From the IMG/VR virus record IMGVR_UViG_2740892214_000019, positions 1 to 34,568 of that record: a stretch of 34,568 nt of DNA; one strand, written 5' to 3'. Positions 1,939-7,040 of this stretch are shown here, piece after piece; position 1 is the first letter of the stretch, and every line of letters starts with the position of its first letter. Below the pieces are notes generated by a model. The model saw nothing but the letters and a program-made list of their open reading frames with translations, made no database searches and was not told where the DNA came from. The position numbers and the translations under genes are program-made. This DNA comes from a virus. Lineage: Duplodnaviria > Heunggongvirae > Uroviricota > Caudoviricetes.

Positions 1939-1968
1939 ACAGGTTGGCCCCATATGAGGCCAACCTGT
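1939..1968. terminator. Perfect 11-bp inverted repeat (ACAGGTTGGCC, 8-nt loop, GGCCAACCTGT), no U-tract
   Basis: Read directly; lies between the Q stop and the 3' end of the minus-strand cassette. Likely bidirectional attenuator or RNA 3'-end stabiliser. Confidence 0.35.
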
Positions 1969-2417
1969 CACAAGTGGGGGAAGATTTTTCGTAACACTAA
2001 CCAACACCTTCCGAAGGTATATAGCGAAATTATAAGGGAGGATAAGCCTAACAGTATGAATAGGAAATCAATAGGTTTGCCCGCAACAATAACATCATCA
2101 GGTAGAAACATCGCTATCAATGGAAATATACATGCGACGATGAGAGTTAACCCTGTTGAAAGTAATCGATTTACCAGAGTTGGTAACACGTTGTTTTGCT
2201 TAAGGGCATTAATTGCTCCTTCCTTATCGCTGTTTGCACTACTAAATATAGATATTGCAGCCAGAACAAAACCAAACAGGATGCCTGATATAGTCGAGAG
2301 CACCCCCGCTGTTGTGAGTACGTCAGCATGCTTCATCGGTTTAAACAGTTTTGTCGCTGCATAGGTCAACAGAATCCAGAGGACGCATTTCCAGAGAAAA
2401 GTGGCTAATTCTCTCAT
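1968..2417 (-). CDS. Small integral membrane protein, about four predicted TM helices (second gene of moron cassette)
   Basis: Four hydrophobic stretches of about 20 aa by eye. Start preferred at the internal Met at 2417 (MRELAT...) because GGAGGA sits about 6 nt upstream; the track start is 2429. AT-rich by eye. Confidence 0.6.
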   Translation of the reverse strand: MRELATFLWKCVLWILLTYAATKLFKPMKHADVLTTAGVLSTISGILFGFVLAAISIFSSANSDKEGAINALKQNNVLPTLVNRLLSTGLTLIVACIFPLIAMFLPDDVIVAGKPIDFLFILLGLSSLIISLYTFGRCWLVLRKIFPHL

Positions 2418-2438
2418 TGTGTCCTCCATGCTTGGTTA

Positions 2439-3380
2439 TTAGTCTCTGCTAGCGAGCTCATACTGTGCAAGATAGTTCGCGTTATCAATTTTAGCAGATA
2501 TCATCGCCGTTCTGATATCAGAATCGGATGGATAACCGCTTTTGACAATGATTGTCTTTGTACTGACCAATACTTGGTCAAGTAGACTTTTGGGCGTTCT
2601 ATTGGATGGCTCTGTTACATCAATTTTTTTAATTTTTAGACCTCCAGAACCTTTTGGAAAAAGTTCAAGTAGTTCCTTAATAGCATCGGTGACAGAAGTT
2701 TTTAGATAGTTAAACCCTTGTTTTTTCGGGCGAATCCGACCTCGCATATTTAATCTTAGATGCGACCCGCCCATACCAACAACCATGTCAATAATTTCAT
2801 TAGCTAAAGGGTTTTTAATCTTATAATTAGCTTTGTTAAAGTTTCTTGGAGCAGCAACTATAAGATCGAAACTACGTAGGATATTTCCGTCCTCAAGCAG
2901 TTCCTTCATGCTCTCTTGTTTCCAAATGGCTTCAAAAGTGACGCTTTTTAAATCAGTTTTGTTATACAAAATGAATGCCAGATCATTTACTTTGGGCCCT
3001 ATATGGTTGAGGGTCATAGCTAATAAGTCCGTTTCGTAGTAATAGATAAAATATGTTCTTTCAACTACAGAATCTTTATCATTTAAAGGAATTGTTCTCT
3101 CACTACCTGTAGCATCCTCGATGAACGGTAGTAGGCATTCCCTTCTCCACGATACGTAACCAAAGTAACATTGCAGTGTGGTATCTTTTTGAAGAATAAC
3201 TAACTTTAACCCTCGATTTGGGGTGTCTGTTGTGTAAGTTATTGGAAAAGTTTCAGTATCTGCTGTGGTCATTTGCTCAAAGGCTAGTTTTGCAGCAGAT
3301 GTGCCATCTTTTTTGCTTCCATTACCAGTGAAAAAACCAACTCTCACTCGCCTAGTTTTATTCTTATTTTCTGTACTCAT
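2439..3380 (-). CDS. Hypothetical soluble Lys/Arg-rich protein, 313 aa (first gene of moron cassette)
   Basis: Long ORF with AT-rich codon usage unlike the flanking phage genes; stop is 9 nt upstream of the membrane-protein ORF, so operon-like. No family recognised. Confidence 0.65.
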   Translation of the reverse strand: MSTENKNKTRRVRVGFFTGNGSKKDGTSAAKLAFEQMTTADTETFPITYTTDTPNRGLKLVILQKDTTLQCYFGYVSWRRECLLPFIEDATGSERTIPLNDKDSVVERTYFIYYYETDLLAMTLNHIGPKVNDLAFILYNKTDLKSVTFEAIWKQESMKELLEDGNILRSFDLIVAAPRNFNKANYKIKNPLANEIIDMVVGMGGSHLRLNMRGRIRPKKQGFNYLKTSVTDAIKELLELFPKGSGGLKIKKIDVTEPSNRTPKSLLDQVLVSTKTIIVKSGYPSDSDIRTAMISAKIDNANYLAQYELASRD

Positions 3381-3395
3381 TATCGATCCGAAATA

Positions 3396-3425
3396 ATTTT
3401 AGCAACCGTGTGAAAAATACAACAA
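3396..3425 (-). promoter_or_regulatory. Putative sigma70 promoter for the cassette
   Basis: On the minus strand TTGTTG/TTGTAT then TAAAAT upstream of the 3380 start. Weak, by-eye match only. Confidence 0.2.
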
Positions 3426-3502
3426 AAAAAAGAGGAAATCATTAGCGCGGTCCGCAAAAAACATTGTAATCTGTTAAGAGTGGTTACTTCGCCACACAGC
3501 TT

Positions 3503-3535
3503 AAACCCGCCGTCGAGCGGGTTTTGTCGTTTCTG
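3503..3535 (+). terminator. tR'-like intrinsic terminator of the short late-promoter leader (6S-type) RNA
   Basis: AAACCCGC, 6-nt loop, GCGGGTTT followed by TGTCGTTTCTG, about 140 nt upstream of the holin gene; the position matches lambdoid PR'-qut-tR'. Confidence 0.5.
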
Positions 3536-3676
3536 TGGCTGGGGATTCGTTGGTCCTGGCCTATTCCGCAGTTCTCCATCGGTTCGGCTTCTTTGATGTT
3601 TCCGCTTCTGATTTGCGGTACATGATGTTCCCTCAATTTGCACCTGCTGTATCAGCGAGGTGAGAGATAACTACAA

Positions 3677-4003
3677 ATGCCTCATAACCCAAATACCTGG
3701 CTGGAGTTGTTCCAGAGCTGGTGGCGTGGAGACACACCGCTGGGCGCAGTGATTATGTCGATCGTTATGGCTGGCTTGCGCATTGCCTATTTTGGCGGTG
3801 GTGGTGGCTGGAAACGAAAAACGCTCGAGATTTTGCTCTGTGGTGCTCTGACGCTGACTTTTGCATCCGCTCTTGAGTATGTCGGATGGCCTAAATCTCT
3901 TTCTGTTGCCATTGGTGGCGGTGTTGGGCTGATTGGTGTCGATGCAATTCGTGGGGCTGCAATGCGAGTAATCGGTAACAAATTTGGTAGCTCGAAGGAG
4001 TAA
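3677..4003 (+). CDS. Holin (putative)
   Basis: 108-aa protein with two to three hydrophobic helices, immediately upstream of the endolysin gene. Confidence 0.6.
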   Translation: MPHNPNTWLELFQSWWRGDTPLGAVIMSIVMAGLRIAYFGGGGGWKRKTLEILLCGALTLTFASALEYVGWPKSLSVAIGGGVGLIGVDAIRGAAMRVIGNKFGSSKE

Positions 4004-4006
4004 TTT

Positions 4007-4483
4007 ATGCAGGCACTAAATTCCCAGCGTAAAGCTTTCTTGGATATGGTTGCATGGTCAGAAGGAACGGATAACGGGCGACAACCGACACGTAACCACG
4101 GTTATGATGTCATTGTCGGTGGTGAACTGTTTACTGATTACTCCGATCATCCTCGCAAACTTGTCACGCTAAATCCGAAACTCAAATCAACAGCAGCCGG
4201 ACGTTACCAGCTTCTTTCCCGTTGGTGGGATGCCTACCGCAAGCAGCTAGGGCTGAAAGACTTCTCTCCCAGAAGCCAGGACTCCGTGGCATTACAGCAG
4301 ATTAAAGAGCGTGGCGCTTTACCGATGATTGATCGCGGTGATATCCGTCAGGCAATCGACCGTTGCAGCAATATCTGGGCTTCACTGCCGGGCGCTGGTT
4401 ATGGTCAGTATGAACATAAAATCGGTGACCTGATTGCCAGGTTTAAAGAGGCTGGTGGGGTGGTAAATGAAGTTGAGCTATAA
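4007..4483 (+). CDS. R: Endolysin, lambda R-type lytic transglycosylase
   Basis: Near-collinear similarity to lambda R as I recall it (NSQRKAFLDMLAWSEGTDNGRQ...YDVIVGGELFTDYSDHPRKLV...). Confidence 0.9.
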   Translation: MQALNSQRKAFLDMVAWSEGTDNGRQPTRNHGYDVIVGGELFTDYSDHPRKLVTLNPKLKSTAAGRYQLLSRWWDAYRKQLGLKDFSPRSQDSVALQQIKERGALPMIDRGDIRQAIDRCSNIWASLPGAGYGQYEHKIGDLIARFKEAGGVVNEVEL

Positions 4484-4859
4484 GCTGATTATCGCTGCTT
4501 TCCTTTTAACTGTCGTCTGTTCTTTCATCTGGTCAACCAACCACTACTACAGCAAATATCAGCACGAAAAGAAACGTGCTGATGAGGCTGTACAAAATGC
4601 CAAATCGGCAACTGCCATTACTAATAACGTCCTGCAATCACTACAAATCGTCAATACAGTACTGGAGGCTAACCAGCATGCAAAACAGCAGATCGCACTG
4701 GAGTCACAGAGAACCCAGGCTGATATCAAAATGGCTTTTGCGAATGATGATTGCGCTGCCCGTCCTGTTCCTGCTCGTGCAGCTGAACGGCTGCGCCGGT
4801 ACGCGGACAGTTTACGTACCAGTTTCGGCGGTACCACTACTAGCGAATCTGACCGCTGA
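4467..4859 (+). CDS. Rz: i-spanin Rz
   Basis: N-terminal TM anchor then coiled-coil-like periplasmic domain; overlaps the endolysin 3' end. Confidence 0.8.
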   Translation: MKLSYKLIIAAFLLTVVCSFIWSTNHYYSKYQHEKKRADEAVQNAKSATAITNNVLQSLQIVNTVLEANQHAKQQIALESQRTQADIKMAFANDDCAARPVPARAAERLRRYADSLRTSFGGTTTSESDR

Positions 4860-5016
4860 AACTCCGCAACCAGCTATCCCCGACCCGCTGACATGGAGTG
4901 GGAGCCTGGATTTGAACGTAAGCCTGTTGTCGGCGCTGGCGTCTTGTAATAGGGATAAGTTAGACATTAGAAAGAGTGAGCACCTGCTTTCGGAGAAAAA
5001 CTCTGCTGAAAAGTGA
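4744..5016 (+). CDS. Rz1: o-spanin Rz1 (lipoprotein), +1 frame overlapping Rz
   Basis: MMIALPVLFLLVQLNGC lipobox signal followed by a Pro-rich region; starts inside Rz and extends beyond its stop. Confidence 0.6.
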   Translation: MMIALPVLFLLVQLNGCAGTRTVYVPVSAVPLLANLTAETPQPAIPDPLTWSGSLDLNVSLLSALASCNRDKLDIRKSEHLLSEKNSAEK

Positions 5017-5124
5017 GGTTATATAGCTAGATCGGAATTGGCGATTCATATATCGGAAATAGTTGGTTAAGAATTTTCTGGAATGATTGTATGCTTTTAC
5101 AACCTATATCGAAGTTCATGTTGG

Positions 5125-5994
5125 ATGAATTTTATGCAAAACGTACAGCCGCTATCTCTGGTAACTACTTTAGTAATTTTGAGGTCTAATGGAGAGTCAA
5201 AGTCGTTAGGTACTGGGTTCTTTTATCAACATAGCAATGGTTTCATTTTCCTTGCAACTAACTATCATGTAATAACTGGAATCAGCCCATCCGAAAGGGG
5301 TGTAAAGCCATTTATAGGCGATAGTATTGATATTCAGCTGAGAGATAAAACCGGAAAACTATTCAAACATACGATGCCTCTGTTTAAAGATGGTTCACCG
5401 CTGTGGTTGGAGCACCCCACAGATAAAGAGGCAGACATTATCTTGATGCCTTTGCCTCAAGAGTTGTTTGTAAACACAGGAGTAAAAGTAGTCTCAAAAA
5501 CAACGACACTGCCTAATGTCCAGATAAACCCCTCATCTCCTGTTGTAATGATTGGATATCCTCATGGTTATCATGACACGACTCACTACCTTCCAATATG
5601 GAAAACAGGAAGCTTAGCGAGTGAGCCAGATATCGATTTCGATGGGAAGAAATTAATAGTTGTCGATATTTCTGCTTTCCCTGGAATGTCAGGCTCTCCG
5701 GCATTCTATGTCACGCACAGTGGTTATCTTACAAAAGAAGGGAATATGATCATGGATATGGGAATGAAAATTCATTTCCTTGGCGTTTATGCAAGTATGC
5801 AAATGCTAAACAGTGATCTTTTCTTAGAACAAGTCGTTAGTGCTGCAGAATACAAAGTGTCGCATAGTGAATCTTTGCAACTAGGGCATGTCTGGAAAGC
5901 TGAGTTACTTGAAGAGATAGCTGCGACATCTAGTCCGATTGCAACCACACCATCTCAATTTCAAAGTAATAGCAAATTCTTATTTAAGTACTGA
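5125..5994 (+). CDS. Standalone trypsin-like (chymotrypsin-fold) serine protease, no signal peptide
   Basis: His motif LATNYHV, candidate Asp in KEADIIL, Ser motif GMSGSP, in H-D-S order. AT-rich by eye. Start chosen at the ATG at 5125 rather than the track's 5083. Confidence 0.65.
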   Translation: MNFMQNVQPLSLVTTLVILRSNGESKSLGTGFFYQHSNGFIFLATNYHVITGISPSERGVKPFIGDSIDIQLRDKTGKLFKHTMPLFKDGSPLWLEHPTDKEADIILMPLPQELFVNTGVKVVSKTTTLPNVQINPSSPVVMIGYPHGYHDTTHYLPIWKTGSLASEPDIDFDGKKLIVVDISAFPGMSGSPAFYVTHSGYLTKEGNMIMDMGMKIHFLGVYASMQMLNSDLFLEQVVSAAEYKVSHSESLQLGHVWKAELLEEIAATSSPIATTPSQFQSNSKFLFKY

Positions 5995-6069
5995 GATACG
6001 TCTACACATAAACCGCCTGTTGGAGGTTTTTATGCATATCGTGCGAGCAGTATCAGAGAGAATATTTCA

Positions 6070-6420
6070 ATGCCACCACGAACACCAAAAGCCTGCCGTG
6101 TTCGCGGCTGCCGATCGACAACCACAGACCCGTCAGGTTATTGCAAGCAACACAAAGGCGAAGGCTGGAAGCAATACAAGCCAGGACAATCCCGTCATCA
6201 GCGCGGTTATGGTTCGAAGTGGGACGTTATCCGCGCGCGTGTGCTGAAGCGTGACAAAGGCCTGTGTCAGTTGTGTTTGCGTGCCGGTGTGGTGCGCGAG
6301 GCGAAAACCGTTGACCACATCATTCCTAAAGCGCATGGCGGCACTGATGCCGACCGTAATCTGCAGAGTCTGTGCTGGCCGTGTCATAAGGCGAAGACGG
6401 CCCGTGAACGGTTGAAGTGA
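6070..6420 (+). CDS. HNH homing endonuclease (terminase-associated)
   Basis: Cys-rich N-terminus and DHIIP...HGG...N...LC..CH HNH motif, immediately upstream of the terminase genes. Confidence 0.85.
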   Translation: MPPRTPKACRVRGCRSTTTDPSGYCKQHKGEGWKQYKPGQSRHQRGYGSKWDVIRARVLKRDKGLCQLCLRAGVVREAKTVDHIIPKAHGGTDADRNLQSLCWPCHKAKTARERLK

Positions 6421-6446
6421 TAATAATTCTCAACTGCTTGAGGGGA

Positions 6447-6506
6447 GGGGCGGGTCAAATCCCTGCGGCCTGACGTCTTCCGGACTGCCCGCCCCATCGT
6501 TTTTTT
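6447..6506 (+). terminator. GC-rich stem (GGGGCGGG ... CCCGCCCC) followed by a T-run; terminator-like, possibly near cos
   Basis: Read directly in the HNH-to-terminase intergenic region. Confidence 0.35.
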
Positions 6507-6545
6507 ATACCCGCGAAAAATGAAATTTAACCAGGAGTGCCGCAT

Positions 6546-7040
6546 ATGGCTGGAACGGCGGGGCGTTCCGGGCGTCGCCCCAAGCCAACGGCGCGCAAGG
6601 CGCTGGCCGGAAACCCCGGCAAGCGAGCCCTGAACAAAGATGAACCTGTTTTTACGCCCATCAAAGGTGTTGAGCCACCAGAGTGGTTCGCTGAAGAAGA
6701 TCTCCCTCTCGCCACGATCATGTGGCAACTGACAACCAAAGAACTCTGCGGTCATGGCCTGTTGTGCGTGACTGACCTCGCGGTGCTTGAGCGGTGGTGC
6801 GTGGCCTATGAGTTCTGGCGACGTGCCGTGAAAAATATTGCCATACAGGGCAACACCATCACCGGTGCAATGGGCGGCAGGGTCAAAAATCCGGAGCTGA
6901 CCGCCAAAAAAGAACAGGAGTCCGAGATGAGCAGCACGGGGGCAATGCTCGGACTCGACCCCAGCAGCCGCCAGCGTCTGATTGGCCTGGCGGGGCAGAA
7001 GAAAGCTACTAACCCGTTTCTGAAAATTATCGAATCATGA
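6546..7040 (+). CDS. Terminase small subunit (P27 family)
   Basis: Family-typical N-terminus (GRSGRRPKP...[10 protein letters not shown]); AGGAG lies 8 nt upstream of the ATG at 6546. Confidence 0.8.

Follow-up and report, generated by a model that had tools for sequence, protein, structure and literature searches.

A leaderless trypsin-like serine protease gene in a cargo slot after the lysis genes of an SfII/SfV-like prophage: a candidate single-gene anti-phage cassette

The window, i.e., the whole stretch of 34,568 nt that was analyzed, is a lambdoid prophage of the SfII/SfV-like type from E. coli/Shigella. Positions 4400–6500 show 100% identity to three complete E. coli chromosomes (MS1679, TW10828 and H1827/12), where the protease gene described here is annotated as 'S1 family peptidase', and are also identical to Shigella phage SfII. 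On the + strand the genes run in the order antiterminator Q region, holin, endolysin, Rz/Rz1, protease open reading frame (ORF), HNH, TerS, TerL and portal. The ORF is thus between Rz/Rz1 and the HNH/TerS/TerL genes, where the initial annotation had placed it. The features are as follows.

3677–4003, + strand: holin, lysis cassette (context)
4007–4483, + strand: endolysin, lysis cassette (context)
4467–4859, + strand: Rz, lysis cassette (context)
ending at 5016, + strand: Rz1, embedded in Rz, lysis cassette (context)
3677–5016, + strand: lysis cassette overall, same orientation as the protease gene
4959–6069, no strand assigned: variable cargo segment, from blastn against L021–L024 and L003
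5017–5133, + strand: AT-rich spacer (GC ~0.33–0.35) with a candidate promoter from a relaxed scan
5067–5095, + strand: candidate promoter, TTAAGA (5067–5072; weak -35), 17 nt, TATGCT (5090–5095; from the relaxed scan)
5123–5125, + strand: weak Shine-Dalgarno sequence GGA, upstream of the start at 5134
5134–5994, + strand: protease gene, 286 aa, predicted leaderless chymotrypsin-fold serine protease with triad H45/D101/S186, PADLOC PDC-S45 / PHROG 7688
5295–5296, no strand assigned: point of IS911 insertion in the otherwise identical SfII copy of the gene
6010–6031, + strand: weak, mismatched hairpin with a T-run, AAACCGCC-TGTT-GGAGGTTTTT, 16 nt past the stop codon, -8.1 kcal/mol by RNAfold
6070–6420, + strand: HNH, packaging block, core phage gene outside the cargo
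6537–7040, + strand: TerS, packaging block, core phage gene outside the cargo
7037–8770, + strand: TerL, packaging block, core phage gene outside the cargo
6070–8770, + strand: packaging block overall (context)

The protease ORF is on the + strand, ends at position 5994 as originally described, and has in-frame starts at 5083, 5125 and 5134. The first reading of the ORF as 5125–5994 had the correct stop, but the start is more likely at 5134, since this is the RefSeq start and all homologues begin there with the pattern M-x-N-V/I. Residues are numbered here from this start. The GC content of the gene is 0.400, compared with 0.499 in the lysis genes, 0.551 in HNH–TerL and 0.532 in the whole window, and the upstream spacer is lower still. 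The gene and its upstream region are thus AT-rich relative to their neighbors, as had been noted, and the proposal of an accessory gene (moron) at the lysis–terminase junction is supported.

Pfam matches the Trypsin_2 domain at residues 29–194 (E = 3e-8, 34.9 bits against a cut-off of 27.6). The three putative catalytic residues, H45 (LATNYHV), D101 (KEADIIL) and S186 (GMSGSP), do not vary in the alignment, which comprises 34 homologues with 39–73% identity from Enterobacterales, Nitrospira, Bacteroidota, Chloroflexota, Desulfobulbus and others. The chymotrypsin-type order His-Asp-Ser read initially from the single sequence is therefore substantiated. Approximately 46 further positions are invariant, including W156-K157, E164, D178 and the C-terminal motif ESLQLGHVWK. 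An AlphaFold2 model made from the same alignment is confident (pLDDT 81.8, pTM 0.82) and displays the two beta-barrels of the chymotrypsin fold that characterize peptidase family S1 / clan PA. Comparison of the model by Foldseek yields chymotrypsin-type proteases (Spl, 3C, DegQ and Esp) with a probability of 1.0, and the fold is nearest to those of the HtrA/Deg quality-control proteases. A fold search of BFVD gives only generic viral 3C-like and serine proteases. A profile of the family has no match at E ≤ 0.01 among PDB sequences; the best matches below threshold are weak (E ~0.02) and represent exfoliative toxins. One of these (E = 0.02) places TNYHV, DLAxI and GYPYG on the strands with the catalytic His and Asp of exfoliative toxin B, and the catalytic Ser lies inside the Pfam match, so that no misalignment with the S1 triad is apparent. 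The single protein sequence gives no significant match among PDB sequences, the matches to Prp8 being spurious.

The N-terminus of the window protein is beta-strand 1 of the fold and has no basic or hydrophobic leader, in agreement with the original assignment of no signal peptide. Pfam, the alignment and the AlphaFold2 model show no PDZ domain, propeptide or signal peptide, and the protease has no recognizable sensor domain. A Deg-like periplasmic protease, which would have a PDZ domain and a signal peptide, is rejected on this architecture. The ~70 aa at the C-terminus, at first taken as an extension, are not an extra domain in the model. Residues 211–255 are an unusually long, family-specific beta-hairpin that completes barrel 2, with strands at 211–229 and 242–255 and a low-confidence tip at 225–244. 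The hairpin is followed by a short helix (257–264) and a disordered, poorly conserved tail of ~20 aa (268–286). Together, alignment and model predict a leaderless and catalytically competent S1 serine protease with an HtrA/DegS-like fold and V8/exfoliative-toxin-like motifs.

Signals for separate expression differ between alleles. A consensus sigma-70 scan finds no site upstream of the window gene, and in the candidate promoter TG abuts the TATGCT hexamer, which breaks the extended -10 spacing. Of 18 alleles, 12 have an extended -10 element (TGnTAnnnT, including TGnTATGCT) between -31 and -50 relative to the start, compared with 2.3 expected from dinucleotide shuffles; the 12 alleles fall into roughly six independent sequence groups. 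The hairpin at 6010–6031 is not called in the terminator scan of the window, whereas canonical rho-independent terminators occupy the equivalent position in seven of ten other alleles (-14 to -16 kcal/mol). The window scan finds no terminator between Rz1 and the protease gene. Judged by these motifs, the window allele is the weak case among the alleles for expression signals of its own.

Comparison by blastn with relatives that carry other cargo (L021–L024 and L003) shows that homology stops at 4958–4982 and resumes at 6027–6070. Four E. coli prophages (L021–L024) have different contents in this slot, i.e., a 64-aa protein with a DUF2513 protein, three small hypothetical proteins, one 197-aa protein, and two minus-strand hypothetical proteins, and there is no annotated cargo gene in the Rz1–HNH slot under the match in SfV and SfIV. 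None of the eight alternative cargo proteins has a credible PADLOC match. The contents of the slot thus vary but give no indication of a specificity for defence, and its designation as a defence hotspot is rejected. Two protease alleles with 50% identity are present in the same slot of one SfV-like backbone.

The family is found after the lysis genes and co-oriented with them in at least five lysis/terminase backbones: SfV-like, a Serratia prophage (holin_3_3, Terminase_2/3), a Citrobacter type (holin_8, GH108, Terminase_6N), an Enterobacter remnant, and further IMG/VR lineages. Lysis genes are recognized in 21 of 23 viral loci, and the protease gene is directly downstream and co-oriented in all of those. 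The cassette also occurs without phage genes, as a solo islet in Pectobacterium between the core genes cutC and cmoB and beside an IS200-type transposase, with an upstream region 77% identical to prophage alleles L043 and L045.

The copy of the gene in SfII (L001 7120–8075) is interrupted in codon 54 or 55 by IS911 (ORF A/B). The SfII_57 entry represents only the C-terminal 206-aa fragment of the protease, which explains its annotation as hypothetical. SfII has been induced, propagated and tested for host range, and is an infective phage (PMC3772137); the protease is thus dispensable for the phage. The locus has the properties expected of a moron in composition (GC 0.40 vs 0.50–0.55), in presence and absence (the slot varies) and in dispensability (the IS-disrupted gene of SfII). 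On sequence comparison it behaves as a mobile moron cassette of ~1.05 kb at the lysis–terminase junction, in which a single gene lies between a weak candidate promoter and a hairpin resembling a terminator.

Other accessory genes are found at these junctions. Small ORFs are present directly upstream of the protease gene in some lineages, encoding 75 aa in the Citrobacter type (L025 4708–4935) and two unrelated 94-aa proteins elsewhere (L043 5654–5938 and L035 2087–2371). They have no Pfam match and are not conserved across lineages, and could be further cargo or lineage-specific modulators. In L036 (6918–9037) and L035 (3383–5433) the protease is followed by an apparent cargo pair (ORFs of ~485–515 aa and ~200 aa) before HNH/terminase, so the junction can hold several cargo genes in tandem.

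The window itself has a second AT-rich cargo cassette (GC 0.376), located on the - strand at 1968–3380 in the interval that separates the Q antiterminator region from the holin gene. Its products are a hydrophobic protein of 153 aa and a protein of 313 aa that belongs to PHROG 7651 (function unknown) and has no match in Pfam or PADLOC. The same Q–holin slot has a two-gene pair matching PADLOC candidates PDC-M53A/B in SfII and TW10828, and a 406-aa protein with an NA37-domain protein in prophages of the type that carries the protease paralogue P0037. The window cassette and the PDC-M53A/B pair are similar in layout, with a soluble protein of ~310–340 aa and a small membrane protein. Homology of the window cassette to PDC-M53A/B is rejected, since BLASTP finds no similarity.

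Neighbors of the protease were scanned for defence-type genes in three non-phage islands. The Nitrospira copy adjoins a TIR protein (PDC-S66/ThsB-like), an HNH protein and a caspase-TPR protein; the Bacteroidota copy adjoins a type II methyltransferase with a 765-aa protein and ParE toxin-antitoxin pairs; and the Desulfobulbus copy adjoins PDC-S19 (DUF3644) and transposases. A scan of ~100,000 species-representative genomes gives only nine loci, in mixed contexts with some among envelope proteins, and these are too few for an enrichment statistic. No neighboring gene is conserved across the contexts examined, and there is no fusion to another domain in the best 150 family representatives (98–365 aa); the description of the protease as standalone is well founded on both counts. 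A conserved partner gene was considered and rejected, in that the upstream small ORFs are lineage-specific and only the Desulfobulbus lineage has DUF3644/PDC-S19 next to the protease. In two unrelated phyla the protease gene is just downstream of riboflavin-biosynthesis genes: L015 from Nitrospira (2512–7763; ribD and riboflavin synthase by Pfam) and L054 from Dehalococcoidia (2963–6444; by reading of ORF translations). This adjacency may be a coincidence or a shared insertion hotspot.

The protein is already represented in public resources, as 'S1 family peptidase' in RefSeq, as PHROG 7688 and as PADLOC PDC-S45. The match to PDC-S45 in PADLOC-DB is full-length (E = 4.2e-41, 138.8 bits; residues 1–268 on positions 11–282 of a 293-position profile). 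PDC-S45 is a single-gene 'phage defence candidate' defined computationally, and membership does not by itself establish function. The match to phrog_7688 (function unknown) has E = 7.5e-112, and no NCBIfam model matches the protease. A profile search of 1.84 billion cluster representatives gives 314 clusters at E ≤ 1e-30 and 6883 at E ≤ 1e-3. P0037, a common E. coli paralogue with 50% identity, matches PDC-S45 (9e-45) and, more weakly, the protease modules of LmuA (7e-8) and of retron RT-Protease_XI (2e-7); the window protein matches LmuA weakly (2e-3). In the literature the name 'PDC-S45' was found in one paper only, as a PADLOC match in Sinorhizobium prophages, and no experimental test of a member was found. 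There is no standalone trypsin-like system among the validated E. coli systems of the DefensePredictor and domain-centric screen papers. The present analysis corrects the architecture and adds the anatomy of the cassette, its recurrent site of insertion, the natural knock-out in SfII and the finding that localization is mixed within the family.

This last property is seen among the 127 close family members, defined by presence of the C-terminal motif. Ninety-two resemble the window protein in lacking a leader. In 24 others a convincing Sec-type leader or N-terminal anchor immediately precedes the conserved start, and the triad is intact (leader-bearing homologues include P0121, P0125, P0126, P0128, P0131, P0132, P0135, P0142, P0049, P0066 and P0099). 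All prophage copies are leaderless. The initial designation 'cytoplasmic' thus fits the window protein but not the family as a whole, which is predicted to act on the cytoplasmic side of the membrane in some organisms and on the far side in others. One mechanism, e.g., the cleavage of a cytoplasmic host factor, then cannot hold for all members.

The best-supported reading of these data, though it is put forward tentatively, is that the gene encodes a prophage-borne, self-contained anti-phage protease. It is suggested by the PDC-S45 match, by the defence-type neighbors and by kinship to the effector modules of Lamassu and retron XI, and also by the autonomous mobile cassette, the allelic replacement in one slot and the dispensability of the gene for the phage. 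A hedged suggestion of this kind in the initial annotation is strengthened, at the level of sequence, by the PDC-S45 match and the neighbors in the islands. The protease would protect the lysogen from other phages and would serve as sensor and effector in one. The enzyme would be present in the lysogen and harmless, due either to a narrow specificity or to an inactive resting state like that of HtrA. Since there is no sensor domain and no partner, binding of the substrate or ligand would itself be the sensing step. A protein of the infecting phage may engage the protease, probably by way of the hairpin 211–255 with its ESLQLGHVWK motif. Once engaged, the protease would block phage production by cleavage of either this phage protein or a host protein that is essential, as in the cleavage of EF-Tu by Lit. 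HtrA-type proteases such as DegS and DegP are switched on allosterically by bound peptides, and the conserved, family-specific hairpin is the obvious candidate for such a site.

A more extended form of the proposal is doubtful. It describes a one-protease immune system, with no sensor and no partner, on a ~1-kb promoter–gene–terminator cassette that would have spread into many lambdoid lysis–terminase junctions. Recognition of a phage protein at the hairpin would also be the activation step, so that the system would parallel Lit with a serine protease, and in other phyla the exported paralogues would have the equivalent function in the periplasm.

Several observations count against an anti-phage role. 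The window allele has no consensus promoter or canonical terminator and its extended -10 spacing is broken, which weakens the case for its expression in the lysogen. Late expression is certain, because the protease gene invariably has the orientation of the late operon. The Sec-type leaders in 24 of 127 relatives, other cargo of the same slot with no known defence family, the nine genomic loci in mixed contexts, and the absence of a recognizable sensor domain also argue against this role.

The main rival is a late-operon protease coupled to lysis that serves the phage itself, which we regard as unlikely. It would be expressed with holin, endolysin and spanin, would reach the envelope or medium only on permeabilization, and would degrade envelope or receptor proteins or debris, so that release is aided or progeny are kept from adsorbing to dead cells. 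The co-oriented position directly after the lysis genes in 21 of 23 viral loci and at least five backbones is consistent with this, as are the lack of a terminator after Rz1 and of a consensus promoter in the window, and the exported state of about one fifth of the close relatives, which indicates that the fold can work outside the cytoplasm. Such a function is difficult to reconcile with the extended -10 element and terminator that most alleles have of their own, with the solo Pectobacterium islet and the non-phage islands, and with the infectivity of SfII after destruction of its protease gene. Unrelated cargo in the slot of relatives further indicates that the position is a permissive insertion site and not a lysis function.

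A slightly less probable explanation is a lysogenic-conversion gene outside phage conflict, with proteolysis that aids the host, e.g., under stress or in the gut. The moron layout is classically tied to genes of benefit to the host, the fold is nearest to the HtrA/Deg quality-control proteases, and the authors of the SfII study count SfII_57 among the hypothetical, phage-specific proteins that may be relevant to pathogenesis (PMC3772137). The protein differs from Deg/HtrA housekeeping proteases in having no PDZ domain or signal peptide. Its distribution is sporadic, with the window allele present across most of the query in 3 of 5426 complete E. coli genomes, and the defence-type neighbors and the PADLOC candidate family also point away from a conversion gene of this kind.

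Improbable is a counter-defence or competition protease, made on induction or infection, that would cleave either an immune protein of the host or a rival prophage's repressor. Proteases are used by both sides in phage-host conflict, the family is frequent in prophages, and late co-transcription is certain from the co-orientation. Anti-defence genes are typically early, whereas this gene comes last in the late lysis block, has promoter-like and terminator-like elements of its own, and belongs to a family also found beside defence genes in non-phage bacterial islands. A decaying or non-functional passenger gene is very improbable: the IS disruption in SfII, truncated copies in public data and the weak expression signals of the window allele would fit it, but several genomes have an intact ORF with 100% identity, the exact protease sequence is on 236 contigs, and the triad and ~46 other positions are invariant across phyla.

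If the anti-phage protease is protective, it would be among the simplest proteolytic immune systems known, with one enzyme, no sensor and no partner. It would also show how a trypsin-fold protease stays safe in the cytoplasm until a phage arrives, and the database candidate PDC-S45 would become a validated system. A natural allelic series is available in E. coli, consisting of two 50%-identical alleles in one slot and the IS knock-out in SfII. If the protease is not protective, its recurrent place after the lysis genes still marks a cargo slot that can be mined in SfV-like and other lambdoid prophages.

Comparison with known systems shows partial likenesses. The protease modules of Lamassu (LmuA-protease) and type XI retrons (RT-protease), and the trypsin-MBL modules of Hachiman, Avs and Argonaute systems, have the same Trypsin_2-type domain. 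These are fused to or paired with sensors (SMC, RT, STAND or helicase), and often with an MBL nuclease, whereas the window protease has neither. No MBL gene is present in any context examined, the neighbors in the window being Rz1 and HNH, and a trypsin-MBL defence module is rejected with no adjacent MBL-fold nuclease and no fusion to a HamA, Avs, Ago or RT sensor in the best 150 relatives. Compared with HtrA/DegS (S1C) and with the V8, Spl and exfoliative-toxin proteases (S1B), the window protease has no PDZ domain, signal peptide or propeptide, and has the long hairpin with ESLQLGHVWK; sequence similarity to any solved structure is below significance.

The lambdoid morons at the lysis–cos junction such as lambda bor, to which the position had been likened, are also accessory genes of atypical composition between the spanin and packaging genes; they have expression signals of their own, for which the window gene has weak candidates. 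bor encodes an outer-membrane lipoprotein and is transcribed against the late operon. The analogy holds for the interval but is loose, because the protease gene is co-oriented with the late operon; its product is also predicted to be cytoplasmic. Lit, from the E. coli element e14, is a zinc metalloprotease that causes abortive infection, with the T4 Gol peptide as trigger and EF-Tu as substrate. It is similarly a single prophage-encoded protease with no partner gene, and the window protein is proposed to be likewise harmless until a phage protein appears, but one is a metalloprotease and the other a serine protease, and the two are not homologous. The closest likeness is to PDC-S45 itself: the HMM match is full-length, both are single genes of ~290 aa in prophages and islands, and there is no structural difference. 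The window protease is a reasonable experimental target within this candidate family rather than a new kind of system.
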